Of a stretch of 40,192 nucleotides of DNA, positions 3,402-22,821 are shown in pieces (position 1 is the stretch's first letter; every line of letters starts with the position of its first letter). The DNA comes from a virus. Made by a program: the position numbers and the translations under genes. Below the pieces are notes generated by a model. The model searched no databases, was not told the DNA's origin, and worked only from the letters and a program-made list of their open reading frames with translations. The stretch lies in the UHGV virus genome UHGV-0071970. One strand, given 5' to 3'.

Positions 3402-3644
3402 ATGATCGAAGCCTACAAAATACTTATTAATAACGCGTTGCAGCGTTACCACTTCGAACTTGCAAACCGGGGCGTAACTAAGGATGAAAGCCTTCGTAAC
3501 TCACTGCGCGGCGCAATTATGGGACTGTATAACTGCGCGCTGGGCAGCGATGACCGTGAAGCGCTGGAAGAATTAAAGTCGATTATGACAGAACTGTTTG
3601 AAGGTGAAATTGTCGAGCCTTACTTCACAGGAGTGGCAGCATGA
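3402..3644 (+). CDS. Hypothetical early protein (80 aa)
   Basis: Compact ORF; its stop overlaps the next ATG (ATGA at 3641-3644). Confidence 0.5.
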   Translation: MIEAYKILINNALQRYHFELANRGVTKDESLRNSLRGAIMGLYNCALGSDDREALEELKSIMTELFEGEIVEPYFTGVAA

Positions 3645-3766
3645 GCATATTCCTTTCATGGGTAATTCTGATTATCTCCGTGCTTATGGCAATCGGCATT
3701 ATGCGAATTATCCACACACTGAAGGATATCGAATTATTCTTTACCGGCGATAAACGCCGTAAATAA
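3641..3766 (+). CDS. Small hydrophobic peptide (41 aa), candidate membrane peptide
   Basis: MSIFLSWVILIISVLMAIGIMRIIHTLKDIELFFTGDKRRK: one predicted TM helix and a basic tail; translationally coupled to the upstream ORF. Below the 60-aa cutoff of the ORF track. Confidence 0.3.
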   Translation: MSIFLSWVILIISVLMAIGIMRIIHTLKDIELFFTGDKRRK

Positions 3767-3778
3767 AGCGAAAACCTT

Positions 3779-3874
3779 ATGAAGAATGTAAAAGCAATAC
3801 ACACCATCGCCACTGTATGGGTGATATTTCAGGTGAGTGCGCTTATCTGGTTAGCCCTGAAGATCTGGGAATAA
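3779..3874 (+). CDS. Small hydrophobic peptide (31 aa)
   Basis: MKNVKAIHTIATVWVIFQVSALIWLALKIWE: one predicted TM helix; lies 13 bp after the previous small ORF. Confidence 0.25.
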   Translation: MKNVKAIHTIATVWVIFQVSALIWLALKIWE

Positions 3875-3980
3875 CCTGAAGCCGAAAGCAGGCGCGGAAT
3901 AACACCAGAAAACACACGAGCAATTAATTAAGGCATTCATGCCTTCGGGTTCCCTTTGTCTTTTTTTCAGGAGTCAACAA

Positions 3981-4211
3981 ATGAGAACAGCCGAATCACC
4001 CGGCAGAGAAATAACCGCCAGACCAGCTAACCATCATGCGCATATCAGCATGGCCGCAAGAAAAGCCGAGCGTGCACATATCTGCGAATTACTGCGCGAG
4101 CTGACTGAGACAGCGAAAGAGACACACACCTGTCCACAGGAAACCTGCGCAGCCATTGAACGACTGATTGCAATACTCGCCAACCCAGACGAACTGAAGG
4201 GGTGCGCATAA
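3981..4211 (+). CDS. Hypothetical protein (76 aa)
   Basis: ATG with SD CAGGAG upstream; ends where the exonuclease gene starts. Confidence 0.4.
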   Translation: MRTAESPGREITARPANHHAHISMAARKAERAHICELLRELTETAKETHTCPQETCAAIERLIAILANPDELKGCA

Positions 4212-4792
4212 TGAACCATCTCATGATTGACACCGAAACACTGGGTAACGGACCGGACGCAGCCATATTCGCGATTGGGGCGGTGTTTTTCGACCCGTTC
4301 ACCGGAAAGCTGGGCAAGCAGTTTGAGAAATTCATCGACCCGGTGGATTCAGAACGCAACGGCGGAACCGTCAATGCAGCCACCGCTGTATGGTGGGCCG
4401 GACAATCCGTGGAGGCCAGATCCTGCCTGCGCAACGCAGATGGAACAGAGCTGGCAGCAGTGACCGAATTTCTGGCGTTCATTTCACGCAATATGCATGA
4501 CGAAAGCCCGGGCAATTCACTGAACATATGGTGTAAGGGCGCATCCTTCGATTTCCCGATCCTGAAATCCGCCATAACACGCACAGCCGGAGAAAAAAGC
4601 ATCCCCTGGTGCTACTGGAACGAGCGCTGTATGCGCCCGCTTATCGCCATGGCTGAATCAACTGGATGGAAAATGCCAGGCAGATCAGGCAAAGAGACCA
4701 TTGCTCACACCGCGCTGGGCGACGCCGTTTACCAGGCAAAGGTCGTGTCAGAAATCTGGCAGCGCTTCACAACACCATTCCTGAACATATGA
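4211..4792 (+). CDS. DEDD-family 3'-5' exonuclease (DnaQ/epsilon-like)
   Basis: Exo motifs visible: MIDTETLG (Exo I, D-x-E), GASFDFPIL (Exo II), HTALGDAV (Exo III, H-x4-D). Confidence 0.75.
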   Translation: MNHLMIDTETLGNGPDAAIFAIGAVFFDPFTGKLGKQFEKFIDPVDSERNGGTVNAATAVWWAGQSVEARSCLRNADGTELAAVTEFLAFISRNMHDESPGNSLNIWCKGASFDFPILKSAITRTAGEKSIPWCYWNERCMRPLIAMAESTGWKMPGRSGKETIAHTALGDAVYQAKVVSEIWQRFTTPFLNI

Positions 4793-4830
4793 GGTGAAGC
4801 CATGGTCGCCATCCTGAATGTGTGTTGCTG

Positions 4831-4840
4831 CCCCCCCCCC
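4831..4840. repeat. Homopolymeric C(10) tract
   Basis: Exactly ten consecutive C read directly in the sequence, in the spacer upstream of dam. Confidence 0.95.
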
Positions 4841-5027
4841 TGAACGTGGAAAGAAAAGCCCGCGCATCGCTGCATTTATTCCGCGACGGCGTGCGGAATT
4901 TTTCACGCATAAAACCCCACGACTACCTGGTAATAAGAATCGGTTTTCGCTGGCGATTGCTGAGCAAAAACAACGGGGCGTCATGGGATTTATTAACGCA
5001 CGAAACCTATAACAAAGAGGCCGCGTT

Positions 5028-5816
5028 ATGAGCAAAGAACTGTTATCCGGCACGCCGCTTAAATGGGTGGGCGGAAAAAGTCGCATCATGAACACACTGA
5101 AGGCGCATCTGCCAGAAGCAGACTGCCTGGTTGAGCCGTTTGTGGGTGGCGCATCGGTATTCATGAACACCAGTTACAAGCGTTACATCCTGGGTGATTC
5201 CAATGGTGCGCTGATTAATTTCTACCGGCAAGCCAGGGACAACACCGACAGCCTGATCGACGAGGCGAAAACCCTGTTCCTGAACCACAACAACAGGGGT
5301 GACTATCTCATCATTCGCGAAACCTTTAACGCAGAGAATCATGCCTTCCTGAACAGTAGAACGGGAATAAGCGACCGCCGTGAACTGCGACTGGCCGCCA
5401 TGTTTTTGTACCTGAACCGACACAGCTTTAACGGTTTGTTCCGCGTGAACGGAAAAGGCGATTTTAACGTGCCTTTCGGCTGCTACCGCAAGCCCTACTT
5501 CCCTGAGCGGGAAATCCGCGCATTTGCAGACAAGGCAAACAGCACCCGAACGCTGCTTATCCACGCAGATTTTAAGGATACGCTGAACTCTGCCAGTCAC
5601 CTGTTCGGCATGGGCAACACGCTTTGCGTGTACTGCGATCCCCCTTACCTGCGATTCAGTGGCCGGGACAATTTCACCGCCTACGGAAAACCATTCGATG
5701 AAGACGAGCACGTTCGTCTGAGGGCAGCGCTTGACCGCCTTTCACAGGAAACGGGCGGCATGACCAGCATCACCATCTCCAATTCCGACACACCGGAAAC
5801 CAGACGCATTTATTAG
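5028..5816 (+). CDS. dam: DNA N6-adenine methyltransferase (Dam family)
   Basis: KWVGGK, FVGGAS (AdoMet motif I) and catalytic DPPY motif in the translation. Confidence 0.85.
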   Translation: MSKELLSGTPLKWVGGKSRIMNTLKAHLPEADCLVEPFVGGASVFMNTSYKRYILGDSNGALINFYRQARDNTDSLIDEAKTLFLNHNNRGDYLIIRETFNAENHAFLNSRTGISDRRELRLAAMFLYLNRHSFNGLFRVNGKGDFNVPFGCYRKPYFPEREIRAFADKANSTRTLLIHADFKDTLNSASHLFGMGNTLCVYCDPPYLRFSGRDNFTAYGKPFDEDEHVRLRAALDRLSQETGGMTSITISNSDTPETRRIY

Positions 5817-5825
5817 GGTTACCGG

Positions 5826-6008
5826 ATGAACGCCATCCAGGCACCACGAAGCGTTGGCGCAAGAACCCGCGAACCCGCACCGGAGGTTATCGCCACCCTG
5901 AAACAGTGCGACGCATGCGGTCGCCATGGCGGTGGCTACTGCCCGGACTGCGGACCGGTAACGGGAGATGCAACTTACAGCGCGATGTTAATCACCGCCA
6001 GTACGTAA
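5826..6008 (+). CDS. Small Cys4 zinc-ribbon-like protein (60 aa)
   Basis: CDACG...CPDCG pair of CxxC motifs; weak ribosome-binding site. Confidence 0.35.
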   Translation: MNAIQAPRSVGARTREPAPEVIATLKQCDACGRHGGGYCPDCGPVTGDATYSAMLITAST

Positions 6009-8775: not shown

Positions 8776-9192
8776 ATGAAGAGCGTTAAGGGACTTTCAG
8801 ATATTCAGGACTTCTTTAACTGGATGTGGGCGGTGGATCCCCTGCTGGCTTCCCGCCTGAACAACTGGCACGACTATTACCGCCGCGCCTGTAAACAGGC
8901 TGCCCGCAGCGTCACCACATACGGGGATTTCTCCTTCACCGTGGACGGTCGTTACCGCGTGGACGTGAAAGGTGATGGTGATGGACTGGGTTTATTTCAC
9001 ATCAACGGCACCGACAGTACCGCCATCAGCTGGTCGTCATCAGAGATGGCGCTGATTCTGGAAATGACAACCCACAGCGTGGCCGTGAAAGGTATATACA
9101 CCGCAGAAGGTTTTATCGGCGAATACCAGCGCCTTCTCGTGCTGTACCGCGCGGCGTTTCAGGTGGCAACTGCCGGGGAGTGCGACGCATGA
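8776..9192 (+). CDS. Hypothetical protein (138 aa) immediately upstream of gpA
   Basis: Its stop overlaps the gpA ATG (ATGA at 9189-9192). Confidence 0.5.
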   Translation: MKSVKGLSDIQDFFNWMWAVDPLLASRLNNWHDYYRRACKQAARSVTTYGDFSFTVDGRYRVDVKGDGDGLGLFHINGTDSTAISWSSSEMALILEMTTHSVAVKGIYTAEGFIGEYQRLLVLYRAAFQVATAGECDA

Positions 9193-11702
9193 GCGACCAT
9201 AACGCACAACTGGCGTACCCGTGGAACGCCCCGCTACCGGTTATCGATCCTGAAACGTTCGGCAGAGCACAGCCAACCGCATTACGCCAGGCCATTCAGA
9301 GCTACATCAACGAGGACATTCGCATTGATGCCAGACTGGATGAAGAAACCGTCGCCTTTCTGACAACCACAGACGAAGGGAAGCGAATTAATTCGCACCT
9401 TCACCACAACGAAGAGCGTCGGATCAGACTGGAAAAACTGGCGAAGCACAAACGCGAGAATCCGCCCACGGTGGTATCGGAAGCCATGGCAGAACTTCGC
9501 GCCCTGCCCTCGTTTCTTGGCAACGTGCTCATTCGTGATCTGGCGCGTTTAAACCGCAAACAACAAAGCGCCCGCAATGAAGGCGTGAAAAACAACAACA
9601 CTCACGTGGCCGATAACTTCGTTCGCCGTGGACTGCGCACACGCCTGAAACGCATCGAACAGGTGAATGAATGCTTCGCCACGACGGCATTCAAAGCCAC
9701 CGCAGCGCGTCATCGCCTTGATGAATTACTCATGCTGCCACAACTCAACCGTGATCAAATTCAGCGCCTTGCCACACTAACGGCGGCGGCATTTTCCACC
9801 GAACTGGAACGCATATGTGATGAAGTTACTGAGCGGACAGGAAAAGGTGACGATAACCTGTTCACCTGGTTGCTGACTTACCAGCAGCTGGCGCGCATGG
9901 CGTTAAAACTGGGCGTGACCCCACCATACTGGCCGTCACTCGAGATCAGACGTGACCGCCGCACGGCACCAGACCCTGAACTGGTACCGGGTGCGGTAAT
10001 GCGTATCACCTGCGCCACCTGGTGGAACAACCAGCTGCGCCACCTCGCTGATCTCTGGCGGGAGGAATTACTGCGTGCCGCCGGAAGAGTATCGCGCAAG
10101 GCATCCCCCTACATCAGCCATGAGTCACTCCAGGAATTCCGGGAGAAACGCCAGCGCACCCGTGATTTTCTCAAAAGCTGGGACATTGAAAACGAAGACG
10201 GTGAACGCCTGAGTCTGGAGGACGTGTACTGGTCAGGGCTGGGGAATCCGCGCAACCGCCGCAACGAGATGATGGCCTGCGTCAGAGGGATGGAACAGGT
10301 CGCCGAATCGCGTGGTGACTCCGCGTTCTTCGTGACAGTGACCTGCCCTTCCCGCTTTCACAGCGTAAACGAGGACGGCAGCCTGAACCCGAAATACAAC
10401 GGTGCCACCGTGCGCGATGCCAGTGATTATCTGGTTTACGACGTCTTTGCAGCTGCAAGAAAAAAACTCAACAAAGAAGGCCTGAGCTGGTACGGGGTGC
10501 GCACCGTTGAGCCACACCATGACGGCACACCGCACTGGCACATGCTGGTATTCACCGCCCCGGACAATGAAGAACGCATCATTGAAATCATGCGTGACGC
10601 AGCAATCAAATCAGATCGCGCAGAACTGGGGAATGATATTTCTCCGCGCTTCAAGTGCGAAAAAATCGACCCGGCAAAAGGCACACCGGCAAGCTACATC
10701 GCAACCTATATTGGCAAGAACCTGGACGCCAGCACCTTTCACGACAATGACCCGAAAACCGGCAAACCTTACGCCGATAAAGAATCGGGAAAAACCATGG
10801 CGGAAACCGTGGAAAACGCCATTGCCTGGGCGAGTCTCCACCGCATCCGGCAGTTCCAGTTCTTCGGTATCCCGCCCCGCCAGGTATGGCGTGAACTCCG
10901 CCGCCTTGCCGGACAAATGGAGCGTAACCCCGCATCACCGAAGCGCCTGGACCATGACGACATTGACGCCATTCTGGCCGCCGCTGACGTGGGGTGTTTT
11001 GCCACCTACATCAACCGTCAGGGCGGCGTGCTCATTCCACGCAACCTGTACCTGATCCGCACCGCATACGAAACCGCAGATGAGGCCAACGACTACGGCG
11101 AATTCCCGCAGCGCATCTACGGAATTTGTGCCCCGTCGCTCGGCGAGCGCTACACCATCTGCACCCATCCGGACGAGTGGAAACTGGTCAGAAAAGAAGC
11201 GAAAGCCGACAACAGCACGGACGAGGATTTTGACGTTGGGGGCGGCTTCGCCGCACCTTGGACTCGTGGCAATAACTGTCCCCATGATGAAAAAACAGAC
11301 ACCGGAGAGGGTAAAACCCCACCACCGGAAACCAGGAAAGAACAAAAACTGGTCGTCCCGGGAGGTGATTTGGGTGAGTGGTTAAGGTCACTGACCCCCA
11401 CAGAGCGAAAACAACTCACCAGGCAGCTGAAAGATGCGCCATCTGACACAAAAACCGTGAAAACCGGCGGCCCCACCACGCCCGATGACGTCATACATGT
11501 GCGTACAGCATTGCCGCTGACTGACGTCACCACCACCGTAATCAAGTCGGCACTGAGCGCGACGGGCGAGGAGCTACACAGTGGCGCAGCACTTTCCGTA
11601 CACAGAGGTGCACGCGTTCGCCTGCCTGACGGGCGGATTGTGCACTGGGATGAGAAATCACGAAGCCTGGTGGCAGCAGATCAACCGGAGGTGAACCCAT
11701 GA
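9189..11702 (+). CDS. A: Replication initiation protein gpA (rolling-circle endonuclease)
   Basis: About 838 aa; tyrosine motif SYIATYIGKNLD typical of rolling-circle initiators; position and size match P2 gene A. ATG at 9189; the track start at 9180 is a GTG. Confidence 0.8.
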   Translation: MSDHNAQLAYPWNAPLPVIDPETFGRAQPTALRQAIQSYINEDIRIDARLDEETVAFLTTTDEGKRINSHLHHNEERRIRLEKLAKHKRENPPTVVSEAMAELRALPSFLGNVLIRDLARLNRKQQSARNEGVKNNNTHVADNFVRRGLRTRLKRIEQVNECFATTAFKATAARHRLDELLMLPQLNRDQIQRLATLTAAAFSTELERICDEVTERTGKGDDNLFTWLLTYQQLARMALKLGVTPPYWPSLEIRRDRRTAPDPELVPGAVMRITCATWWNNQLRHLADLWREELLRAAGRVSRKASPYISHESLQEFREKRQRTRDFLKSWDIENEDGERLSLEDVYWSGLGNPRNRRNEMMACVRGMEQVAESRGDSAFFVTVTCPSRFHSVNEDGSLNPKYNGATVRDASDYLVYDVFAAARKKLNKEGLSWYGVRTVEPHHDGTPHWHMLVFTAPDNEERIIEIMRDAAIKSDRAELGNDISPRFKCEKIDPAKGTPASYIATYIGKNLDASTFHDNDPKTGKPYADKESGKTMAETVENAIAWASLHRIRQFQFFGIPPRQVWRELRRLAGQMERNPASPKRLDHDDIDAILAAADVGCFATYINRQGGVLIPRNLYLIRTAYETADEANDYGEFPQRIYGICAPSLGERYTICTHPDEWKLVRKEAKADNSTDEDFDVGGGFAAPWTRGNNCPHDEKTDTGEGKTPPPETRKEQKLVVPGGDLGEWLRSLTPTERKQLTRQLKDAPSDTKTVKTGGPTTPDDVIHVRTALPLTDVTTTVIKSALSATGEELHSGAALSVHRGARVRLPDGRIVHWDEKSRSLVAADQPEVNP

Positions 11703-12103
11703 CACGATTCCATTGTGTACTCCAGCGCCATGATTTCAGCGCCATCATGAGTGGACGCATTCCCGCACTGACGCTGAGCGGCGTCAGTGTTCGACCACAG
11801 CCAGGCGACGAACTGGAGATCACGATCGCAAACCCCGATCGCAGCACAGATACCGTCATGACCGACATCCTGACTGCAAGAATCAACACCGACAGAAGCG
11901 CATTCATCGTTGCCGTGCGCCCTCGTCGCGCCATATCAGAGCCTGAACCACTGACTCCCGTAGGAAAAATCATGCAGGCATACCACGAAAAACAGACCAG
12001 AAAACTCAACGAAGAACTGGCAAGAACGCTGGCCGTCGTTAACCGAAAAGCGGCAATTGTCCGCTATGTGCATTCGGCCGCCAGCAGGCAATCACGCAGG
12101 TAA
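11699..12103 (+). CDS. Hypothetical protein (134 aa)
   Basis: ATGA overlap with the gpA stop. Confidence 0.45.
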   Translation: MTRFHCVLQRHDFSAIMSGRIPALTLSGVSVRPQPGDELEITIANPDRSTDTVMTDILTARINTDRSAFIVAVRPRRAISEPEPLTPVGKIMQAYHEKQTRKLNEELARTLAVVNRKAAIVRYVHSAASRQSRR

Positions 12104-12151
12104 CAAAAGACCATGAACATGACCAGAAACAGCAAACCGAAGGAGCACACC

Positions 12152-12322
12152 ATGAACGACATCAGGAGGATCAGCGACAAAGAGCTTACGAAAATGATTG
12201 AGTCGGCGCAGCAGCTGCTTTCACGACGAAATCCGGTTGTGGAAGAAACATGGTGGGAAAATTTACTGGCAGCACTGACCGAACTCCGCGAACGCCGGAA
12301 CAACGAAGGAGCCGCCAAATGA
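12152..12322 (+). CDS. Hypothetical small protein (56 aa)
   Basis: ATG at 12152 with strong SD AAGGAG; the track ORF starts further upstream at 12113. Confidence 0.4.
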   Translation: MNDIRRISDKELTKMIESAQQLLSRRNPVVEETWWENLLAALTELRERRNNEGAAK

Positions 12323-12657
12323 AGACACCCAGAATGACCGGAAAGGTAATCATTTTACGCTACCTGGAAACGCACGCACGCTTCAGCGCACCAGAGCTGG
12401 TTGAAAAACTGGGCGTGAAAAGGACCATCATTAATCAGGCCGCCGGAAAGATGGTACGCGAAGGGCTGCTGGTTGTGGACGGGTACACGGACAAGATAAC
12501 GCATTACCGGAAGCCAACGGAAAAGGAACGACTGGAGCTGGAGCGGCGGGCTGAACAGCAACAAAAGCCGTCCGTAATCCAGGACTGCAAGCGAAGCGAA
12601 ATCATGAAGCGAATTCTGTTTATCTACGGCGCTGGCGAAGAGCTGCCAGTCATCTAA
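12319..12657 (+). CDS. Putative winged-helix DNA-binding protein (112 aa)
   Basis: ATGA overlap with the previous ORF; LRYLETHARFSAPELVEKLGVKRTIINQAAGKMVREGLLVV looks like an HTH followed by a wing. Confidence 0.45.
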   Translation: MKTPRMTGKVIILRYLETHARFSAPELVEKLGVKRTIINQAAGKMVREGLLVVDGYTDKITHYRKPTEKERLELERRAEQQQKPSVIQDCKRSEIMKRILFIYGAGEELPVI

Positions 12658-12689
12658 CCCCAACAATAAAACCAACACGGGAGACAAAT

Positions 12690-13007
12690 ATGCCAACACA
12701 GGTTGCAACAGAGGGACGACTGGCAGCAGACCCGAACACAAGGAGAACAACCAAAGGAACCAACGTCACAACGGCACAACTGGCGGTATCACTACCCTGC
12801 CATGGCGCAGAACAGCCAACCACAATGTGGCTTTACCTTATTGCATTCGGGAAGCAGCACGAAGAACCGGCAAAACACAGAAAAGGCGATCTGATTCTGG
12901 TGCACGGAAACTTGCAGGTAAACAGGTATCAGGACAAGTACGGGCAACAGAAAGAGGGCTGGCAGTTGCTGGCGCAAAGCATTATCAGCTCAAGAACCGG
13001 GCGATGA
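12690..13007 (+). CDS. SSB-like OB-fold protein (105 aa)
   Basis: Residue pattern G-L..DP....KG....A.LAV ... W....AFGK.AE ... KGD.I.V.G.L....Y.DK.G.Q follows the single-strand-binding protein fold pattern; SD GGGAGA. Confidence 0.45.
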   Translation: MPTQVATEGRLAADPNTRRTTKGTNVTTAQLAVSLPCHGAEQPTTMWLYLIAFGKQHEEPAKHRKGDLILVHGNLQVNRYQDKYGQQKEGWQLLAQSIISSRTGR

Positions 13008-13017
13008 CTTCACGCAT

Positions 13018-13041
13018 GTTACCCTCAGCAGCGAGGGTAAC
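13018..13041. terminator. Bidirectional terminator hairpin between convergent genes
   Basis: GTTACCCTC-AGCAGC-GAGGGTAAC, 9-bp stem, with a T-rich run (13049-13058) on the plus side. Confidence 0.5.
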
Positions 13042-13056
13042 ACAGGATTTCTTTTT

Positions 13057-13602
13057 TCAGTCAAACCGAAATCGGCCGCTTGTCGCGTATGCATAGGTGA
13101 CCACCGCACCCAGCGCATTCACACGCTTCTTCACATAAATCACATTACCATCCTGATAGTCACCGTATGGGTAGCAAATAAAGATTGTTTTTTGCAAATC
13201 AGGATCATCAACAAATGCCCCTGAACAACTTTTTGAGCTACCGCGACTGTACTCATAGGGAGCGGAATAGAATGAATCTTCACCCGGAAGAAAATATATC
13301 AGCGTAACCAGGAGGGTAAACAGAATCATCCAGGTAAGAAGGCACATACCCGAAAAAAACTTAAGATACGATGTAACCCCGGTAAATTTAGACCGATCAA
13401 CCAGGTTCTTTTTCAACAGGCACAGTGAGACAAAAACCGAAAGCACCACAGACACTGAAACAAGGCAGTTTGTCGTGAACGAATAAAGGTAGGTAATTCT
13501 GTAAACATCGTTTCGCCACCAAATAAAAAGAAAAATCCCCCCCAAAACAGAAAGCGTGACAAAAGTTAAATAAGGATATGAGTAATTTTTCACAGTTCTC
13601 AC
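13057..13602 (-). CDS. Multi-pass membrane protein (about 182 aa) of the accessory cassette
   Basis: Probable GTG start at 13602 with SD GGGAGA; the track ORF extends to 13764 over the promoter motif. Three hydrophobic helices plus a C-terminal soluble domain; AT-rich. Confidence 0.5.
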   Translation of the reverse strand: MRTVKNYSYPYLTFVTLSVLGGIFLFIWWRNDVYRITYLYSFTTNCLVSVSVVLSVFVSLCLLKKNLVDRSKFTGVTSYLKFFSGMCLLTWMILFTLLVTLIYFLPGEDSFYSAPYEYSRGSSKSCSGAFVDDPDLQKTIFICYPYGDYQDGNVIYVKKRVNALGAVVTYAYATSGRFRFD

Positions 13603-13673
13603 CCGGCAGTCTCCCACTGATTCAGACAGATGAATATCATCACCACTTGCCACAAAAAATCGCAAGATCAAAA

Positions 13674-13712
13674 CTGCACAAAAGCGCACGAAATTGCACA
13701 ATTTTTCTAATG
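13674..13712. promoter_or_regulatory. Conserved 39-bp promoter-proximal element, copy A (upstream of membrane gene)
   Basis: CTGCACAAAAGCGCACGAAATTGCACAATTTTTCTAATG; 30/39 identical to the element at 16602-16640; contains three GTGCA/GTGCG repeats at about 10-11 bp spacing. Confidence 0.5.
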
Positions 13713-13932
13713 TACTTTTTCCCCATTCCGCCCGGTAACGGCGCTGGCTGAGGCCGGTTTGCACGGTGCACGAAAAACGAGGCGAGTAGTGGATGGGTAA
13801 AAATTAATAATAAGTATAAGCAATGTCGATAAACCAAGACACAACAAGTATTCAACACAATTAATCATGCACGTGCAAATAGCAATAACATTAACACATT
13901 ATTTATATAAAAAACAATCTGATATTATTTCG

Positions 13933-13963
13933 GTTGTGGGCTTGGTATTTTCAAACCCACAAC
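13933..13963 (-). terminator. Possible terminator hairpin downstream of the three-gene operon
   Basis: GTTGTGGG-N15-CCCACAAC; a U-rich run follows only after a gap on the minus strand, so weak. Confidence 0.3.
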
Positions 13964-13997
13964 AATAATATTATTTCGAGATATTAAACATAGACAA

Positions 13998-14789
13998 TCA
14001 CCCTATTTTTCTATGCATTTTCATGAGTTCCCTTATTAAGCTAGCATGAAAGATTGATACATCAGAAATCCTTGTATCAATAGATGAATCAATATTATCA
14101 GAAACCTTTTGCTCAAATAAATCGCAGATACCATCAAGTGACTCAATATCTTTTTCCAACTTAGAAAAACCCTTAAATAGATATAATGAATCCCTTAACT
14201 CCCCAAGCTTTGAAAATAGTTGGCTATCTAGTAATGATATAAATTCATCAGAGGGAAGCCCCATCGCATCCTTAAAATCTTCCGTAACTTCAAAAGCTAA
14301 TCCATTAATTTTAGGGAGAATAACTTCTCGTAACCAATACCCTTCGTTTATAGCTTCATTTCTTCCTTTATAATGCTGCCACAAAGGAACCCCTACAGAT
14401 GCAATTAGCGCAATAATTGAAATTGCTATAGAGTACCATTCAGGTCCTGATTCAGGAACTCTAACGATATTATAGAGATTCCCCGATGAGGTTGAGGGGT
14501 AATATCCATTCAGAACATAATTATCAGGTTTATCATAAAGAAGGTGCGGTGTAAACTTCCTTTCATAACTATTGCATAATTTTAGATCGCTATTTTTTCC
14601 AATGCATATATCAGCATTAAAAATGTTTCCACTCTTTGGTTCTATTACGTGAGACTCTGAATTTTGCGAATCCATGTTAGACGCGGTTCTTTCTAGATAT
14701 GTCGCAGAGCAAGCGGATATATTAACAAAAAAAATGACAGGCAATGCTGTCATTTTAAAAACAGAGCACAAATCAGAAGAACGGAACAT
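13998..14789 (-). CDS. Predicted lipoprotein/membrane protein (263 aa), cassette gene 3
   Basis: N-terminus MFRSSDLCSVFKMTALPVIFFVNISAC looks like a signal peptide with lipobox ISAC; internal TM WYSIAISIIALIASVGVPLW; acidic C-terminal domain. Start overlaps the upstream gene by 17 bp. Confidence 0.5.
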   Translation of the reverse strand: MFRSSDLCSVFKMTALPVIFFVNISACSATYLERTASNMDSQNSESHVIEPKSGNIFNADICIGKNSDLKLCNSYERKFTPHLLYDKPDNYVLNGYYPSTSSGNLYNIVRVPESGPEWYSIAISIIALIASVGVPLWQHYKGRNEAINEGYWLREVILPKINGLAFEVTEDFKDAMGLPSDEFISLLDSQLFSKLGELRDSLYLFKGFSKLEKDIESLDGICDLFEQKVSDNIDSSIDTRISDVSIFHASLIRELMKMHRKIG

Positions 14790-15117
14790 TTCGATGTAAT
14801 CCTCTTCTCACAGCCCTATCCAGCTCAGAAAGCATTCCTTCTTTATAATTCACTCCATCTAAAGATGTTCTGCTATAAAATTCATTCGGAGATGAAAAAA
14901 GAGGCAATATATTCTCTAGCATACCCAAAAAGTATGAGCTTGACACAACCACACCATTCGGAATTGATAGAAAAATCCTATCATTGTTATCAAAAGTAAA
15001 GCGATCTATGCCAAAGAAACTATATGCCTTGCGACCATTATCACGCCCAGCAAATAATTTCTTGCCGCCATCTTTAACTAATTTATTGAAATCTATATAA
15101 ATATTTGCCATTTTCAT
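14773..15117 (-). CDS. STAS-like (DUF4325-type) small protein, cassette gene 2
   Basis: Core RIFLSIPNGVVVSSSYFLGML fits the STAS-like DUF4325 pattern as I recall it; SD GAGGAA; coupled to the upstream ATPase gene. Confidence 0.45.
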   Translation of the reverse strand: MKMANIYIDFNKLVKDGGKKLFAGRDNGRKAYSFFGIDRFTFDNNDRIFLSIPNGVVVSSSYFLGMLENILPLFSSPNEFYSRTSLDGVNYKEGMLSELDRAVRRGLHRNVPFF

Positions 15118-15128
15118 TTACCTATTCC

Positions 15129-16505
15129 TCAGGTTCTTTGAGTTGCATTTTCCGGTAAAGGAAAACGTATATTAATCATAACTCCCGGAAAACGGGCTTT
15201 CTGCATACACTTAAGATAGGTACGATCTGGTTCAGATTCAAGCCCTGTATTATTAAATGGATAAGTGAATTTGTCACTTTGGTTATCTAACGTTTGCTTT
15301 TTCAACTTATAAGAACCATCAAAGTTTATATGTGTGCATCCAGAAATTAAAGACATTCTGATGTTTCCACTTAGTTCTTTGGATAGTTCTTTTAAACTAT
15401 CATGCATATCCTGGAAAAACTTCAATAGCTCAATGGTTCCCGTACCAGAACTATCTGTCTCCGTTTCATTTTTACAACTAACCCGCCCCTGCAAAGCAGC
15501 GACTGTAATCAAACCTTCTCTAAACATCCCTTTTTTATTTATGTGTTTTTCCACATAAGGGATTATGTGATTGTTATATGAATAATGTTCTAAAGAAAGT
15601 CCTGAAAAAGTTTCATCAATAGTTTTTCCAAAGTTAAAAACAGCTATTTCACATGTTGGCTGTTTTAAGCCATTATTTACAAACCCCCTCAAATACCAAC
15701 GCGGACGCTGCTCAAGCCCACAATGTCTCTCTGCATTATCAAGTAATTCGCCCATGCAAGATGTTAGATGGTTTTCTGCCTTGCTAACTAATTTTAATTG
15801 ATGATCACTTAGACACTCGTTTATATAATTAGTGAATTTCTCAGACATTCTATTTTTGGTATCTTGTGCAAATGCAGACGCATTTTCCTTGCCGATACTA
15901 TCAGCAGAGAATATTCTTTTCTTAGGGTTATCTTTTTTCGATTTTTCTGTTTCATCATGCACCTTCCCTGGCGTCACTTTATTTATTTCTTTAACCAACC
16001 CGATGTCACGAATAATTTCTAAATATTTTTCATCCTTCGGATAAATGCCATTAAGTTGTACTTGAGCATCTTTTAAATTTATATTGTGACGTTTGGCTGA
16101 GCTCAGTGCAACACCAAGGAGACATTCCGCACCTAAACAATGCTTTTTATTTTTAGTATAATCAAGCAAATATGATTTACGTTTACCCCTGGCAATCAAT
16201 CTAGTTACACCATGAATAAACAAAAGAGATTTTTCTGGATGATCAAACAAATCGAAACATTTAGGTATTATTACTCTATCTTCTTTGCGACGAAGAGTTG
16301 CAGTATCATATTTCTTTACGGATGAAATACTTTCAATAAAAGTAGCCACCTGACTTTTCACTGGTGTTACTTCGTCAGAAAAATGTAACCTTTCATAGGC
16401 TTTATATTTAATTCTTCTTTTATTTTTTCTCTCAACGCCTTTTAAAAAGCGAATCCAACCACGTAAAAAGCGTTTTCTTGCATCCTTTTTATCTATTTTT
16501 TTCAC
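15129..16505 (-). CDS. GHKL-superfamily ATPase, anti-sigma-factor-kinase-like, with about 240-aa basic N-terminal extension; cassette gene 1
   Basis: N-box-like GELLDNAERH and G-rich lid DSSGTGTIELL in the C-terminal half; GTG start at 16505 with SD AAGG; strongly AT-rich. Confidence 0.5.
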   Translation of the reverse strand: MKKIDKKDARKRFLRGWIRFLKGVERKNKRRIKYKAYERLHFSDEVTPVKSQVATFIESISSVKKYDTATLRRKEDRVIIPKCFDLFDHPEKSLLFIHGVTRLIARGKRKSYLLDYTKNKKHCLGAECLLGVALSSAKRHNINLKDAQVQLNGIYPKDEKYLEIIRDIGLVKEINKVTPGKVHDETEKSKKDNPKKRIFSADSIGKENASAFAQDTKNRMSEKFTNYINECLSDHQLKLVSKAENHLTSCMGELLDNAERHCGLEQRPRWYLRGFVNNGLKQPTCEIAVFNFGKTIDETFSGLSLEHYSYNNHIIPYVEKHINKKGMFREGLITVAALQGRVSCKNETETDSSGTGTIELLKFFQDMHDSLKELSKELSGNIRMSLISGCTHINFDGSYKLKKQTLDNQSDKFTYPFNNTGLESEPDRTYLKCMQKARFPGVMINIRFPLPENATQRT

Positions 16506-16547
16506 TATTCACCTTACTTAACAAACATCTATACTACTTCGTTGCAA

Positions 16548-16575
16548 AGTATACATATCACTTGCTAATACACAA
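16548..16575 (-). promoter_or_regulatory. Candidate sigma70 promoter of the cassette operon (TTGTGT-N16-TATACT on the minus strand)
   Basis: Hexamers read on the minus strand about 45 bp upstream of the GTG start, just downstream of the repeat motif. Confidence 0.3.
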
Positions 16576-16601
16576 TATGGCTTCGAGATAATCCGCAGCA
16601 T

Positions 16602-16640
16602 CTGCACAATAGTGCACAAATTTGCATAATTTTTTTGAAC
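16602..16640. promoter_or_regulatory. Conserved 39-bp promoter-proximal element, copy B (upstream of ATPase operon)
   Basis: CTGCACAATAGTGCACAAATTTGCATAATTTTTTTGAAC; see copy A. Confidence 0.5.
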
Positions 16641-16725
16641 GACTTTTTGCCCTTCCGGCCCGCGTGGCGGCTGGATCCGTCAAGGATCCGTGCGTGCACA
16701 AAAAAACACGCTTTTTCTGCGCGCA

Positions 16726-16745
16726 GGCGACGAGGGAAGGGCGCC
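16726..16745. other. Candidate cos (cohesive end) region
   Basis: GGCGACGAGGGAAGGGCGCC loosely resembles the P2 19-nt cos sequence as I recall it (GGCGAGGCGGGGAAAGCAC); sits between the accessory region and portal gene as in P2. Exact ends not determinable. Confidence 0.3.
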
Positions 16746-17024
16746 CGAATTGAGGGGTGGAAGGCAGGTTGCTTTATTTGGGGTCGTATTGCGCGTGATA
16801 CGCACGCAGTGAAGCCGGTTCTGAAAAAACCACACCGAAACAGAGTCAGAAAAACAGGCCGCCAGAATGCGTCTGGTTGAGTTTTACGGGGTCGGGATTA
16901 AATGCGGAAACATCACACCGCAGGCATGACGCGAAAAAGAGAAAAACCACAGCAAAACATAATGTTAAATGTTATTGATGAGTTGAGAAGCGAAAGGTGT
17001 ATTGCGTTGACAGAGCTGGAGAGT

Positions 17025-17049
17025 CGGGGCATAAATTTTTTATGCCCCG
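17025..17049 (-). terminator. Perfect 11-bp-arm hairpin just downstream of the portal gene
   Basis: CGGGGCATAAA-TTT-TTTATGCCCCG, 27 bp past the Q stop; no clean U-run after it, so function as terminator is uncertain. Confidence 0.35.
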
Positions 17050-17075
17050 GCGAAGCAGCCGACAAGCGAAGCGCG

Positions 17076-18119
17076 TCAGCTGGCGCCATCCTGAAGCAGC
17101 GAATAGGGATTAAAGCGCATCACTTCAACCCCAAGCCATTCATTGACATGCTTCATCGCTTCCATGACCGGTTGCAACTCGTTGATGAAAAATACCCTCG
17201 CCGCCTTCTCAACGTCACCGAACGCCGTGTTCCCGTCAGGCATTGCCCCCATCAGCTGAGGCGGTACACGGTGAGCCGCAAGGATATCGTCGCGGGCACT
17301 CCCCTTGATGTTAAGGAATTCGTCCTTCGCGGTGATTTGCTGGAACGGTAGTATTTGCACACCATCCTTGCCGCCACCTGGCGCGTGCAGAAGGATATTG
17401 CGGAACGCCCCCTTGCCACGGGATTCCGTGAGTGTTTTCTTGATGGCTTCCACGCTTTCAGCGTTTGCCTGGGCGGCACCAACATAGACAATGCACCCGG
17501 CATGTGAACCGTTGTCATAGTAGAGCTTGCGGAACGTATCCGCTGAGTTCGACAGACTCACCGACAGCAACCCACCGATATACTCCGGCATCCCGTAGAT
17601 TTCCTGGTTGATATCGGGGTTCAGAACGTGGCACACAGCCCCCTTACGGAAAGCAAATTCAGAACCATCATCATTGAGGTACCAGTACGTATCGAGATCA
17701 CTGCCCCGCCGCGTGTATTTCGCCAGCGCAGGACGAAGCGCAATGGGTTCACCGAACTTGTTGCGGCGGACTTCAAGATAGGCATTACCGAACACGAACC
17801 AGTCCAGCGCAAACGCGGAAAACGCCTGGCGGGACAGTAGCGGATGAGGAACAAAGCAGCCGTTCAGGGCATTACGCTTAAAATACAGGGCCGACTGGTG
17901 CCATGATGCACGACGCGAGGCGCGAGCAATGGCATTCCAGTCCATGGGGGTGTCATAGTAGCGGCCATTATCGGCGCACGACATGTTATCAAGCAGATCA
18001 AGACGGCTTGCTTCATAAGGACCGTCAAACGTGAAAGCACTGAGTGACGGCGCTGATTTCAGTGCATCAGCCAGTGAGCCCGTGCCGCGCTTTCCGGTGT
18101 ATTTTTTACGTTTACTCAT
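17076..18119 (-). CDS. Q: Portal protein (gpQ)
   Basis: 347-aa translation matches the P2 Q portal family by size, position next to terminase and overall sequence character. Confidence 0.85.
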   Translation of the reverse strand: MSKRKKYTGKRGTGSLADALKSAPSLSAFTFDGPYEASRLDLLDNMSCADNGRYYDTPMDWNAIARASRRASWHQSALYFKRNALNGCFVPHPLLSRQAFSAFALDWFVFGNAYLEVRRNKFGEPIALRPALAKYTRRGSDLDTYWYLNDDGSEFAFRKGAVCHVLNPDINQEIYGMPEYIGGLLSVSLSNSADTFRKLYYDNGSHAGCIVYVGAAQANAESVEAIKKTLTESRGKGAFRNILLHAPGGGKDGVQILPFQQITAKDEFLNIKGSARDDILAAHRVPPQLMGAMPDGNTAFGDVEKAARVFFINELQPVMEAMKHVNEWLGVEVMRFNPYSLLQDGAS

Positions 18120-18124
18120 TGTGT

Positions 18125-19858
18125 TCAGAACTCCATTGCAAAGCCACGATTATCCTCACGCTCTGCGCCGATTGGCTCATTGATAACAGCAAGCATGGTT
18201 GCCCAGGCGAGATCACCATGACTGACACCGCGTGAGCGGTCAGTGTCATAGGTGATATAGCCGCCGGGCGTCTGTATTTTTCGCACCGATGCAAAGGCCT
18301 GTACCAGGTCGCGCTCGCTGCGGTCATACTCCCAGCGTCCGGCACGGACCACCTGAAGCATCTTCATGACCAGCGCCCGCTTTGAAGCGATATTAAAGTT
18401 ATACGGAACAGCCAGGGGGAAGAATTTTTTCACTATCTGATAAACCCCTTCCCCGTTCCCGCCGGTGACATCAATCCCGATATGCTTCACATTGTATTTT
18501 TGGGTGTACTCCTCAATCAGGGCGGCCTGCTGTTCAAACTCCATGCCCTGAACCCTGACGGTTTCCACCGTACGAAAACGCCCACCGGCAACAAGGGGTG
18601 GCACGCACACCGACAGCGCCCCGCAGTCCCCCTTCCCGCTGCTGCCGTTGGCGTCATACCCGAGCCAGACTTCCCTCACCCCCATAGGGCGGACAGCAAA
18701 AGGCTTCCAGTCCGGCCATTCGTCATAGCCATCAACACCGCACCCGACGAGCGTATTCAGACTGAAGGCTGCCTCACCATCACGGACAAATTCGCACATG
18801 TACAGATTGCGAAATTCACTTTCTGTATTTTCGCCGCGAATATCATCAATACTGGTGAACTGCCATCCGTTAGCGACAGCATCCTCAATGGTGACAATCT
18901 GCCGCCACGTTTTGTCGGGAAAGAGCACGCCCCTCTTCAGGTGAGCATGTGAAACATCAAACTCACTGCGTTTTGAGCGTGGCTGTTCGCTGTTCCAGCG
19001 GTCCCCCGTCCAGAACTGATACGCCTCATGCATTTCCCCCGACGGCGTCGAGAAGTAAGTGCGCGTAAGCCCTTCCAGGGTCGCCATTGCCCCGGCAACC
19101 TTCCTGAGGTTCACAAAGTTACTGACCCAGAAAAATTCGTCGAATTTAAGATGACCGGTATAGGACTGCGCGGTGGCAGCTGACGTACCGAGGAAGTGCA
19201 GCTCCGCGCCGTTGGACAGCACGATCTTGTCGCCCCCTTTCAGCTCAACATCCACTTCCAGCGCCGCCTGCTGAATAAAATGCTTGAACTGATACGCCTG
19301 ACGACGGGAGGCGGACAAAAATATCTGGTTGCGCTGATACCCGGCGGAGACGTCATCACGCAGTGCATCAAGGAGCGCCTCGCGCGCAAAATACCAGGTC
19401 GCACCAATCTGACGCGACTTCAGGATCATACGGTTGCGGTGGTGACGGTTTTCGTACCATTCACGTTGATGCCACGCCAGCGTCGGGAGGATTTTTTCAC
19501 GAAGCGCGACAATCTGTTCTTCGGTGAAGTGATTTTTCAGTCTGCGTTTACGGGGCTTTTTACCGGAAACGGCCTGTTCTCCCTGACCGTCATTCAGTTT
19601 TTTCAGCTGGCGCGTGAGAAGGTCAATTTCCTTAAAATCGCTGCCGCTTTTCTCTGTTTTTGTGGTGAGCTGGATCAGGCGCGCATCAATGGACTGGGTG
19701 ACCCGCTGGATCGGAGGTGTGGCATCCCACTCATCGCGTTTTTTCCATGAGTAAATCGTGTTCTGGCTGATCCCCATCAGTTGCGAGATTTCCGCAGGTG
19801 TGTACCCTTGCCAGTAAAGTTGTCTTGCCCTTATGCGGACAAATGCATCCTGAATCAT
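18125..19858 (-). CDS. P: Terminase large (ATPase) subunit (gpP)
   Basis: N-terminal HTH-like segment ARQLYWQGYTPAEISQLMGISQNTIYSWKKRDEWD followed by a large ATPase/nuclease body. ATG at 19858 has SD GGGGG; the track gives an alternative ATG at 19903. Confidence 0.85.
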   Translation of the reverse strand: MIQDAFVRIRARQLYWQGYTPAEISQLMGISQNTIYSWKKRDEWDATPPIQRVTQSIDARLIQLTTKTEKSGSDFKEIDLLTRQLKKLNDGQGEQAVSGKKPRKRRLKNHFTEEQIVALREKILPTLAWHQREWYENRHHRNRMILKSRQIGATWYFAREALLDALRDDVSAGYQRNQIFLSASRRQAYQFKHFIQQAALEVDVELKGGDKIVLSNGAELHFLGTSAATAQSYTGHLKFDEFFWVSNFVNLRKVAGAMATLEGLTRTYFSTPSGEMHEAYQFWTGDRWNSEQPRSKRSEFDVSHAHLKRGVLFPDKTWRQIVTIEDAVANGWQFTSIDDIRGENTESEFRNLYMCEFVRDGEAAFSLNTLVGCGVDGYDEWPDWKPFAVRPMGVREVWLGYDANGSSGKGDCGALSVCVPPLVAGGRFRTVETVRVQGMEFEQQAALIEEYTQKYNVKHIGIDVTGGNGEGVYQIVKKFFPLAVPYNFNIASKRALVMKMLQVVRAGRWEYDRSERDLVQAFASVRKIQTPGGYITYDTDRSRGVSHGDLAWATMLAVINEPIGAEREDNRGFAMEF

Positions 19859-19925
19859 TGACGCCCCCTTGCTGTTTGATCTCAAGAGTAAACGCCCGCG
19901 CATTCATCCAGGTATCCGGTGCCAT

Positions 19926-20015: not shown

Positions 20016-20852
20016 ATGGCAAGTAAAAACGCGCCAGTACGGAAAAAATTCCGCGTCGCCGTCTCGGGCACCACCATCGACGGGCGTGAGATTTCGGGGC
20101 TGATGTTGCGTCAGGCCGCTGAGAATTACGACCCGGAAGTGTGGGGGTCACGGGTGAACGTGGAGCACATGCTTTCACGTATGCCATCCAGTGAATTCAG
20201 TGCCGTGGGCGATGTGATTTCACTGTCCACCGAAGAAATCAGGGAAGGCAAACTGGCCGGCCGCACCGCACTGTATGCCGAAATTGAGCCCACCGACCGC
20301 ATGACGCAGATGCTGAATGATGGCAAGAAAATCTACTCAAGCATTGAGCTTGAACCCAACATTGATGCCGTTGGCGGCCCTTACGTAATTGGCCTGGCAA
20401 TGACCGATACCCCGGCAAGTCTCGGCACTGAACGACTGAAGTTTGCCGCCCAGCAGCGCGCCAGCATCATGCAGTTCAACAGCCGCAACGGTGAGCCAGT
20501 CATGTTCACCGAATGTATGGAAGCGGAACTCGCGGCCTCCGTACAGGACAGCACCGAAGAAAGCCAGAAATGGTTTTCGCGCGTCATGGCGCTCATCAGC
20601 AAAACCCGTGACACGGACAGCGAGCAGTTCGCTCACGTGCGCGAAGCCGTCGAGAGCATTGCCACGGAACAGGCCGGCCTTCTGGATCGCTTCCATGCGA
20701 TGGAAGAGCAACAGCGCAGTGATAAGGCATCACTGGAAACCCTGACCCGCGAACTGACTGAACTGAAGGCGCAGCTGAAAACCGAAGATGCAGACAAGGA
20801 ACAGCGCTTTGCTTCAACCGGTGGCAACAGCCACGCCCTGGCTGATTTTTAA
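20016..20852 (+). CDS. O: Capsid scaffolding protein (gpO)
   Basis: Size, position and N-terminus (KKFRVAVSGTTIDGREIS...) parallel P2 gpO. Confidence 0.75.
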   Translation: MASKNAPVRKKFRVAVSGTTIDGREISGLMLRQAAENYDPEVWGSRVNVEHMLSRMPSSEFSAVGDVISLSTEEIREGKLAGRTALYAEIEPTDRMTQMLNDGKKIYSSIELEPNIDAVGGPYVIGLAMTDTPASLGTERLKFAAQQRASIMQFNSRNGEPVMFTECMEAELAASVQDSTEESQKWFSRVMALISKTRDTDSEQFAHVREAVESIATEQAGLLDRFHAMEEQQRSDKASLETLTRELTELKAQLKTEDADKEQRFASTGGNSHALADF

Positions 20853-20867
20853 CTGAGGAACAAAATC

Positions 20868-21962
20868 ATGGGAAACCGCTTAACGCTTTCTCGCGAAGGT
20901 CGCAGCAATCTTGAGGCCTATCTTGCACGCCAGGCTGAACTGGCCGAAACCACCGTAGAACGACTGGGGAAAACCTTCAGCGTTGATCCGGCTGTTCATC
21001 AGAAGATGGAAAACGCCATCAAAGAGAGCGACGAGCTGCTGAAAAGAATCAACAGCATCGGCGTTGACGATCAGGAGGGTGAAAAAGTCCTGGTGAATAC
21101 CAGCGGCCCCATCGCCAGCACCAACTCAACCAGTGACGGCGTGAAGCGACGCAATCCCGCTGACGTCTCTGATCTGGCATCACGTCGTTATCGCTGCGAA
21201 CAGGTGAACTACGACACCTTCATCAGCTACGCACAGATTGACGCGTGGAGCAGCCAGAAAAACTTCCAGCAACTGCTGAGTGCACAAATCACCCGACAGA
21301 TTGCACTGGACCGTATCATGATTGGCTTTAACGGTGAGTCGCACGCCATCATCTCCGATCGTTCTGCCAACCCGAAACTTCAGGACGTTAACACCGGGTG
21401 GCTGAAACACATCCGTGAACACGCCACGACGCGTGTCGTGAAGGCAATGACGCTGACCCGTCGCGATCATGAAAACAAACTGGTTGCAAAAGGCGACTAC
21501 GGCAACGCTGACGCGATGGTTAACGACATTCGTTCTTCCGTACTGGATGAGTGGCACAAGGACGCCCCGGATCTGGTTGTTGTCATGGGCCGCAACCTGT
21601 TCAACACGCTGCGTCTGCCTATGATTAACGCCATCAGCACCACCAACCCGAACACGGAGCTGGTCGCCGGACAGCTGATTACAGCCTCCCGCACCATTGG
21701 CGCGCTGCCGACCTTCTTTGCGCCGTACTTCCCGGACGATGCCATGCTGATCACGTCGTTCAGCAACCTTTCGGTGTACTTCCAGAAAGGGTCACTGCGT
21801 CGCTTCATCCGTGAAGAGCCGGAGTACAACCGTATCGCCACCTACCAGTCCATGAACGACTGCTACGTGGTGGAAGACTACGGCAAATGTGCGCTGATTG
21901 AGGGCATTTCTTTCGCCGGTGAAGATCCGGAAGACAAGGAAGAGGCAGAAGCGCAGGCGTAA
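20868..21962 (+). CDS. N: Major capsid protein (gpN)
   Basis: 364 aa, directly after the scaffold gene; P2 N-like. Confidence 0.8.
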   Translation: MGNRLTLSREGRSNLEAYLARQAELAETTVERLGKTFSVDPAVHQKMENAIKESDELLKRINSIGVDDQEGEKVLVNTSGPIASTNSTSDGVKRRNPADVSDLASRRYRCEQVNYDTFISYAQIDAWSSQKNFQQLLSAQITRQIALDRIMIGFNGESHAIISDRSANPKLQDVNTGWLKHIREHATTRVVKAMTLTRRDHENKLVAKGDYGNADAMVNDIRSSVLDEWHKDAPDLVVVMGRNLFNTLRLPMINAISTTNPNTELVAGQLITASRTIGALPTFFAPYFPDDAMLITSFSNLSVYFQKGSLRRFIREEPEYNRIATYQSMNDCYVVEDYGKCALIEGISFAGEDPEDKEEAEAQA

Positions 21963-22011: not shown

Positions 22012-22821
22012 ATGCTGACACCGGCACAACGATACCTTCAGCGCGTGATGGCGCATCATCGGGCTGATCCATTCAGTCGCGAAGAGCAGCGAACACGAAC
22101 GGCACATGAACAGGTTCTTCACCAGTTACGCCTCGCCCAGTTGCAGCTGAAGGGCGTGCAGTCGAACATCGCGAAAGCGGAGCTGAAGAAGCACCTGATA
22201 CCGAATTTTGAAGGCTGGATAGACGGCACGCTGGCAGGCGACAGCGGACGCCAGGACGAAGTCATTACCACCATGATGGTGTGGGCAATTGACTGCCGGG
22301 ATTATCCGCTGGCACTGCGTATCGGTGAGTACGTCATTCGTCACCGGCTGGCACTGCCGGACAACTTCGGGCGCGATTCGGCGACCGTGCTCACCGAAGA
22401 AATTGCCGAAGTTGTGCTGACAGAAGCCGCCACCAACAGCGAAACCGACTTATCCGGCTATATCCGTATGCTGGACGAGCTGGATGCACTGGTTCACGAC
22501 CAGGACATGCCGGATCAGGTTCGTGCAAAACTACATAAGGCGCGGGCATTTTCACGGCGCGCATCAGGCAGTACGGAAGACATGACTGTGTCACTTGGTC
22601 TGCTGCGTGAAGCCATGCGCATCAATCCGGCAGCGGGCGTGAAGCGTGAAATCGCCACGCTGGCCAGAAAGGTATCAAAGGTTCAGCCGGAACCGGAAAA
22701 ACCGGCAGAAGAGAAAAGTAAATCGAAAGCAACATCAGGGCGCAAAAAGCCGACTACAAAAGCGACGGCCAGAAAAGCCACGAAAAAAACCGCCGCAAAA
22801 CCGGCGCGCAAGGCGACCTGA
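22012..22821 (+). CDS. M: Terminase small (endonuclease) subunit (gpM)
   Basis: Position after N and a basic lysine-rich C-terminal tail, as in P2 gpM. Confidence 0.75.
   Translation: MLTPAQRYLQRVMAHHRADPFSREEQRTRTAHEQVLHQLRLAQLQLKGVQSNIAKAELKKHLIPNFEGWIDGTLAGDSGRQDEVITTMMVWAIDCRDYPLALRIGEYVIRHRLALPDNFGRDSATVLTEEIAEVVLTEAATNSETDLSGYIRMLDELDALVHDQDMPDQVRAKLHKARAFSRRASGSTEDMTVSLGLLREAMRINPAAGVKREIATLARKVSKVQPEPEKPAEEKSKSKATSGRKKPTTKATARKATKKTAAKPARKAT

Follow-up and report, generated by a model that had tools for sequence, protein, structure and literature searches.

In phage lambda, the cosB site lies next to cosN and is made up of the gpNu1 sites R3, R2, and R1 and an IHF site. A retron replacement next to the cohesive-end site (cos) of phage 186 was reportedly described by Dodd and Egan in 1996. 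For P2 and P4, a functional cos core of 55 bp has been published (Ziermann and Calendar, 1990, as cited in PMC3931495, PMC5694545, and PMC9594776), and longer P2/P4 cos flanks raise cosmid transduction more than 10^4-fold (PMC9594776). The small terminase subunits (TerS) of cos packagers bind cos in a sequence-specific manner (PMC9611059). P4-like satellites lack structural genes, and the only homology to their helpers reported in the literature is at cos. The interval between gpA and gpQ, directly beside cos, is the variable hotspot of P2-like phages (Rousset et al., 2022, PMC9122126), and hotspots with more than one system have been reported (PMC9122126). Here, we analyzed the virus genome UHGV-0071970, a stretch of 40,192 nucleotides (the window, always meant at its full length), which is a P88-like (Xuanwuvirus, Peduoviridae) prophage of the P2 family. 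Its hotspot contains two copies of a 39-bp element, for which an original prediction had favored a role as a regulatory site. We consider it quite probable that each element instead forms the distal portion of the flank to the left of a P2-family cos site, likely a terminase-recognition array like lambda cosB, and that the pair arose when the flank was duplicated by hotspot exchange.

The repeat pair and the adjoining cos site

Both elements were found on the plus strand at the positions originally reported. Each contains three short units, and the spacing predicted as about one helical turn between TGTGCA-like repeats is exactly 10 bp in both copies. The features of the two flanks are as follows (types A and B are two P88-like phage types, described below; minus positions are counted from the putative nick).

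13674..13712, plus strand: copy 1, distal repeat block, with TGCACAA, CGCACGA, and TGCACAA from 13675, 13685, and 13695, then an AATTTTT run
13674..13783, plus strand: copy 1, full A-type cos-left flank, including proximal units at 13760 and 13767
16602..16640, plus strand: copy 2, distal repeat block, with TGCACAA, TGCACAA, and TGCATAA at 16603, 16613, and 16623
16695..16707, plus strand: TGCACAAAAAAAC, proximal unit at -31, corresponding to TGCATTAAAACC of P2, P4, and 186 (55-bp core cos)
16719..16727, plus strand: GCGCGCAGG, 9 nt common to both parental types, spanning the putative nick
16726..16744, plus strand: GGCGACGAGGGAAGGGCGC, putative 19-nt cohesive-end sequence

Over both copies the unit consensus is [T/C]GCA[C/T][A/G]A, and a fourth unit follows 72 bp further on, at 13767 for copy 1 and at 16695 for copy 2. 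The similarity is longer than 39 bp. It extends without gaps over 61 nt at 77% identity (13674-13734 versus 16602-16662) and, when gaps are allowed, gives 86 matches over 110/113 nt (13674-13783 versus 16602-16714). A search pattern of the 23 core positions common to both copies, TGCACAANNNNGCACNAANTTGCANAATTT, matched only the two elements when the 40-kb window was scanned with up to three mismatches, and it had no match in 100 dinucleotide shuffles. Five of the six plus-strand TGCACAA heptamers of the whole window are located inside the two elements. The repeat pair is real and goes beyond chance.

Downstream of copy 2 the sequence reads GCGCGCA/GGCGACGAGGGAAGGGCGC (16719-16744; the slash marks the putative nick). 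By hand count, GGCGACGAGGGAAGGGCGC is identical at 13 of 19 positions to the P2 overhang GGCGAGGCGGGGAAAGCAC annotated in the P2 record, and both are found at the same place on the map, flanked by the hotspot and the portal gene. Because of this match to the P2 cohesive end and of the map position, we took GCGCGCA/GGCGACGAGGGAAGGGCGC as the cos nick, which would fall at GCGCGCA/GG. The B-lineage form of the cohesive end is conserved as GGTGACGGGGGAACAGCCC. Counted from this nick, the units of copy 2 lie at -123, -113, and -103, and copy 2 is attached to the only complete cos site. It also has the place of a P2-family cos flank, with gpA and the hotspot on its left and the portal gene Q on its right, and the portal gene adjoins the element in 111 of 120 related loci. 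The cohesive-end sequence is attached to copy 2 only; copy 1 ends 14 nt before it.

Homology of the window to every related phage record starts exactly at the first unit of copy 2. Scanning IMG/VR with the repeat pattern yielded 120 loci with one copy each, and directly left of the element these loci carry 56 different 30-nt sequences. To the right, GCGCGCAGG was found 116 bp (115-117) from the element in all 113 loci in which the motif was matched, and a variant of it occupies the same place in six further IMG/VR loci. A first conservation profile was biased, since its loci had been chosen by the repeat pattern. The second profile came from a survey anchored on the cos motif alone, in which a site was taken as real if it had a proximal TGCAC unit near -31. 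All three distal units were in register at 77 of the 79 real P88-like cos sites; the proximal unit was present at 79 of 79, but its presence defined a counted site. After dereplication, this cos-anchored set had an information content of 0.17 bits per position in the left flank. The distal and proximal units reached 1.58 and 1.51, compared with 1.06 for the spacer and 0.96 for the stretch directly preceding cos. Judged from these alignments, the element is the outermost conserved backbone sequence, and the variable cargo hotspot starts directly left of it. The motif marks the outer edge of cos and with it the exact right-hand boundary of the P2-type defense hotspot, which helps to delimit cargo automatically.

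At the two cos sites that lack the full register, a deletion joins a distal unit to the proximal unit. In the IMG/VR P88-like prophages L168 and L189, roughly 82 bp have been lost some 40 nt to the left of the cos motif, joining distal unit 2 and the proximal unit as ctgcacaatagtgcacaaaaaacgcg. This deletion probably resulted from recombination between TGCACAA units, and the two prophages may be packaging-defective. Two other IMG/VR loci, L046 and L097, have an extra degenerate unit (five mismatches to the 23-position template) 10 bp upstream of the three TGCACAA units. Their overhang GGCGAGGCGGGGGAGCAAG is closer to that of P2, and their units are positioned at -121/-111/-101/-38/-29. The linear record of P88_4B11 (NC_049391; L002/L003) is opened at -87 from the putative nick, between GAACGAATTTT and TGCCCTTCC. 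We rejected this record start as a physical end, because it lies inside the cos flank, unlike P2-type ends, and looks arbitrary.

The array across P2-family phages and satellites

A comparable set of units was recovered from other P2-family phages and from P4. Positions counted from the top-strand nick, and unit types, are listed here.

P2: -123/-111/-101/-29, TGCAT
P4: -124/-111/-101/-29, TGCAT
186: -124/-111/-101/-29, TGCAT
PSP3: -120/-111/-101/-29, TGCAT
Ralstonia RSA1: -129/-110/-100/-29, TGCAT
P88-like types A and B and Enterobacter phiT5282H: -123/-113/-103/-31, TGCAC(A/G)A
Pseudomonas phiCTX: -109/-99/-83/-37/-28, (T/C)GCAG, looser placement
Stenotrophomonas Smp131: -141/-129/-112/-102/-29, (T/C)GCAG, looser placement

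The cos site beside copy 2 shares several features with those of P2, P4, and 186. It has the gpA-side hotspot on one side and the portal gene Q on the other, a G+C-rich 19-nt overhang related to GGCGAGGCGGGGAAAGCAC, a TGCAN-A-rich proximal unit some 30 bp to the left of the nick, and, at nearly the same offsets, three phased units roughly 100-125 bp to its left. It differs in the unit sequence (TGCACAA here versus TGCAT), in the unit spacing (10/10 bp here versus 12-13/10 bp), and in its spacer, which is unrelated. Between lineages the distal and proximal unit types covary and the spacer sequences are unrelated, which argues for one phage-encoded reader of both sites. The phiCTX record (L133/L136) carries an annotation of 'R4, R5, R6 repeats' that span cos, with IHF sites nearby.

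The geometry is also kept in satellites. In a set ascertained by the Psu protein (L191-L270), TGCAT was found at -124/-111/-101/-29 in 72 of 75 P4-like satellites, including members with 62-64% Psu identity and a diverged spacer. As to the exceptions, L268 has its entire distal block displaced by 6 bp, and two others carry a point mutation in one of the units. The block of P4 comes after the 3' end of psu, with the variable hotspot on the opposite side of cos, and that of 186 after the t95b terminator; in neither does a leftward gene adjoin the block.

With phased repeats, a fixed distance to the nick, and a conservation above that of its surroundings, the block shows features of a cosB-type array. 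Like lambda cosB, it places several short repeats beside the nicking site at a fixed distance, and by analogy it may serve to anchor the small terminase and to position the nuclease. Unlike in lambda cosB, the units here all have the same direction and one of them is about 70 bp away from the array; there is no sequence relationship between the two, and no IHF site was identified here. The element is a lineage variant of the P2-family cos flank and probably works like lambda cosB. The family-wide geometry, the satellites, and the presence of the block in P4 and 186 without a leftward gene make a packaging role the best explanation.

In the mechanism that we propose, the units would be recognition sites for a phage packaging protein, most likely the small terminase gpM as an oligomer. 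This protein would bind the phased distal array together with the proximal unit, bending or wrapping the spacer of about 70 bp. Once bound, it would position the large subunit gpP to nick at GCGCGCA/GG, the role that cosB plays in lambda. In the window, the packaging and head genes are arranged as follows.

17076-18119, minus strand: portal gpQ, right of cos
18125-19903, minus strand: large terminase gpP, right of cos
20016-21962: scaffold and capsid (capsid, PF05125)
22012..22821, plus strand: small terminase subunit, gpM homologue (PF05944, E = 7e-39; PHROG 74)

Several points weigh against this interpretation. The nick is placed by a 13/19 similarity with the P2 overhang. Only the proximal unit falls within the published core of 55 bp, and the distal block, being outside, may enhance packaging rather than be required for it; for P2 and P4, the open literature that we searched, Ziermann and Calendar (1990) itself being outside that search, gives only the 55-bp core and no distal block. 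The array could also act in termination, like cosQ, rather than in initiation, like cosB. When gpM, gpN, and gpP were compared with the motif class among P2, RSA1, phiCTX, Smp131, and both P88-like types, the gpM identities followed phylogeny and did not single out gpM as the binder. Among the 120 TGCACAA-motif loci, we found no P4-like satellite with TGCACAA units, one locus having an integrase match only. Finally, the block may have a minor, secondary role in cargo transcription or promoter strength.

It is unlikely, in our view, that the repeats are a cos-linked backbone element of another function, such as a termination signal comparable to cosQ, a binding site for a bending protein of the host, or iterons or a centromere serving the plasmid-like maintenance known from some P88-type phages (ParM/ParR). 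Such a function would agree with the conservation and the fixed distance, which indicate a link to cos and leave the binder unnamed, and with the repeats and IHF sites annotated around the phiCTX cos. However, the lineage-specific TGCAT, TGCAC, and GCAG units, changing together at distal and proximal sites, argue for a phage-encoded reader and not for a host factor, and the proximal unit is part of the published packaging core. A ParR-type centromere was suggested by the ParM-type partition genes in the P88 hotspot, and it was rejected because the block also occurs in phages and satellites without partition genes.

Returning to the packaging function, the comparison suggests that the functional P2/P4 cos may reach to about -125 and carry a lineage-specific repeat code. 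Such an extended cos bears on the design of P2/P4 delivery vectors, where longer flanks gave the strong increase in transduction cited above (PMC9594776). A more far-reaching idea, which we put forward tentatively and hold to be rather doubtful as it stands, is that the TGCA-N units form a bipartite terminase-recognition code of Peduoviridae and P4-like satellites, with the distal triple array and the proximal unit about seven helical turns apart. If so, packaging specificity would be determined by the fifth base and the flank, both variable (TGCAT, TGCAC, GCAG). This would decide which satellites a helper mobilizes and which cos-adjacent defense modules can be exchanged between lineages without loss of packaging, and the published core of 55 bp would account for just half of the functional site. 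Orphaned arrays such as copy 1 would then be scars of module exchange and might titrate terminase.

Neighboring genes and the operator interpretation

The genes on the left of cos that bear on a regulatory function are listed below.

9180-11702: replication endonuclease gpA
12250-13007, plus strand: small genes, including MarR-like and SSB
12319-12657: MarR/winged helix-turn-helix (wHTH) protein, the proposed regulator
13057..13602, minus strand: membrane-protein gene, the native hotspot cargo of type A
13998-14789, 14773-15117, and 15129-16505, minus strand: three-gene cassette, low G+C

The original prediction read the repeats as a direct-repeat operator or activator site, with the wHTH protein as candidate binder, that co-regulates the membrane gene and the three-gene operon as one system. 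Its positional basis is correct, as both copies lie upstream of minus-strand start codons, copy 2 at 96 bp from GTG 16505 and copy 1 at 71 bp from the likely GTG 13602, and phased direct repeats are typical of activator sites. We nevertheless regard an operator as very unlikely. The distance of the element to cos is constant whatever the cargo, as seen across the 56 distinct left flanks. The neighboring gene is encoded on the plus strand and runs toward the element in 82 of 107 loci, often with a terminator at its end, and a minus-strand neighbor was found in only 25. In P4 and 186, as described, the block stands without an adjacent leftward gene. In the 59 element-bearing loci that extend from gpA to the portal gene, a homologue of the MarR protein is present in three and absent from 56, which speaks against this protein as the binder; the membrane gene is present in two, and the cassette in one and absent from 58. 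The notion of a single system also fails, because the two transcription units derive from different parental phages (see below).

No minus-strand sigma-70-like promoter was predicted at either copy. On the plus strand, copy 2 contains a sigma-70 match, TGCACA-N16-CATAAT, which probably results from the repeat sequence itself. Of terminator-like hairpins, copy 1 has two weak ones, on the minus strand, and copy 2 has none, and a search of 12500-17500 against Rfam returned nothing relevant.

The motif had further been expected next to homologous cassettes elsewhere, and its absence there had been named as evidence against the operator. A cassette homologue in Proteus faecis (L142; 69/69/52% identity) lacks the motif, with no TGCAC repeat in the 500 nt upstream of it, and no gpA or portal gene is found within 6 kb. 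Another homologue, in Yersinia aleksiciae (L143), is located in a P2-like hotspot next to cos.

One observation on P2 could be taken in favor of a regulatory site. According to the P2 record (L007, 33424/33426), the old-tin mRNA starts at -151/-149, 26-28 bp beyond the outermost TGCAT unit, and by our reading the -35 hexamer of this promoter (TTGAAT) overlaps that unit, which is the equivalent of those discussed here. Promoters of leftward cargo genes thus lie right beside the block, and this explains why the element is found upstream of two start codons. The block is not a cargo-specific operator, and a structural reading in terms of packaging replaces the tempting regulatory annotation of the motif.

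Origin of the two copies

Both parental arrangements of the flanks exist in E. coli. Type A (e.g., strain SW070917; about 15 E. coli records are listed) has SSB, the membrane gene, the copy-1 flank, AATTGCA, GCGCGCA/GGCGACGAGGG, and the portal gene. Type B (SE11 and seven others) has the gpA stop, the cassette, the copy-2 flank, GCGCGCA/GGTGACGGGGG, and the portal gene. The window is 99.1% identical over 11100-13783 to the type A record L004, which goes on with AATTGCA-GCGCGCA/GGCGACG. The distal block of copy 1 is the same sequence as the cos-left flank of L004, where it lies at -123/-113/-103 from the nick. To the right of this part lies the following segment.

13784..16718, strandless: B-type-derived segment, with the last two gpA codons GAG TAG (13784-13789), the cassette, and the B-type cos-left flank

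This segment is 99.3% identical to positions 3001-5957 of the E. coli SE11 prophage L005, and its G+C content falls to 0.28-0.39. From 16728 the window is A-type again. The right crossover lies within the 9 nt that both parents have in common at the nick (16719-16727), and the left junction (13783/13784) is illegitimate and without homology. Read from the parental sequences, these matches show that an A-type phage took over the complete hotspot of a B-type phage, from gpA to cos and with the cos flank. Copy 1 was cut 14 nt before the nick and has no cosN, so it is an orphan and not cleavable. It is a relic 2.9 kb away from copy 2, which serves the single complete cos. As types A and B agree in their units and in the offsets of these, the A-type terminase should still recognize the hybrid cos; the gpM proteins of A and B are only 57% identical.

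As an alternative, the original prediction had proposed that the pair brackets an inserted module as its terminal direct repeats. The bracketing is essentially right, with another origin of the repeats. That they are terminal repeats, or a target-site duplication, belonging to a mobile element with three genes is the most improbable of the alternatives considered: the copies do bracket the module 13784-16718 and flank its foreign low-G+C part (13784-16601) in the same orientation, but they are homologous cos flanks of two lineages, 77% identical and each orthologous to that of a different lineage; the cassette-free type A site already has copy 1, and the type B donor has copy 2 only; the left end of the insert is the donor gpA stop codon, with no repeat; the Proteus cassette is not bounded by both repeats; and the cassette and membrane proteins match no Pfam, PADLOC, or PHROG family of known function, no transposase or integrase being identifiable.

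The stacked arrangement was found in one of 5426 complete E. coli genomes, that of strain S1-CAM-02-A (NZ_CP145707), and none of the 120 IMG/VR loci scanned has a second copy. Like the cos-adjacent defense hotspots of P2-like phages and P4-like satellites (PMC9122126), the locus holds variable cargo between gpA and cos. Unlike in these, two cargo units are stacked here with a duplicated cos flank between them, a recombination scar. With both parents extant in E. coli, it is a clean example of how cos-adjacent hotspots gain more than one system. The S1-CAM-02-A locus and the window are distinguished by an indel of roughly 100 bp in the interval from cos to the portal gene (16876-17013 versus L006 5775-5810).

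For the membrane gene, RefSeq/PGAP gives the start GTG 13764 (235 aa), e.g., in NZ_CP145707. We judged this start to be over-extended, because the open reading frame would then run through the conserved cos-flank repeats, and the cos-flank interpretation thus argues against the N-terminal extension. GTG 13602 (181 aa), with a Shine-Dalgarno sequence GGGAG 8 nt upstream, is likely the more plausible start. The membrane protein has a strong match to PHROG 1416 (function unknown) in its C-terminal 90 residues only. The cassette appears in the hotspot list of Rousset et al. (2022, Table S5A; PMC9122126) as a 'hypothetical + hypothetical + hypothetical' arrangement, outside the systems that were tested there. 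Its proteins have no PADLOC or Pfam match, and two of the three have weak matches to PHROG families of unknown function. By eye, the 458-aa cassette protein shows GHKL-ATPase-like motifs (ELLDNAERH and DSSGTGT).

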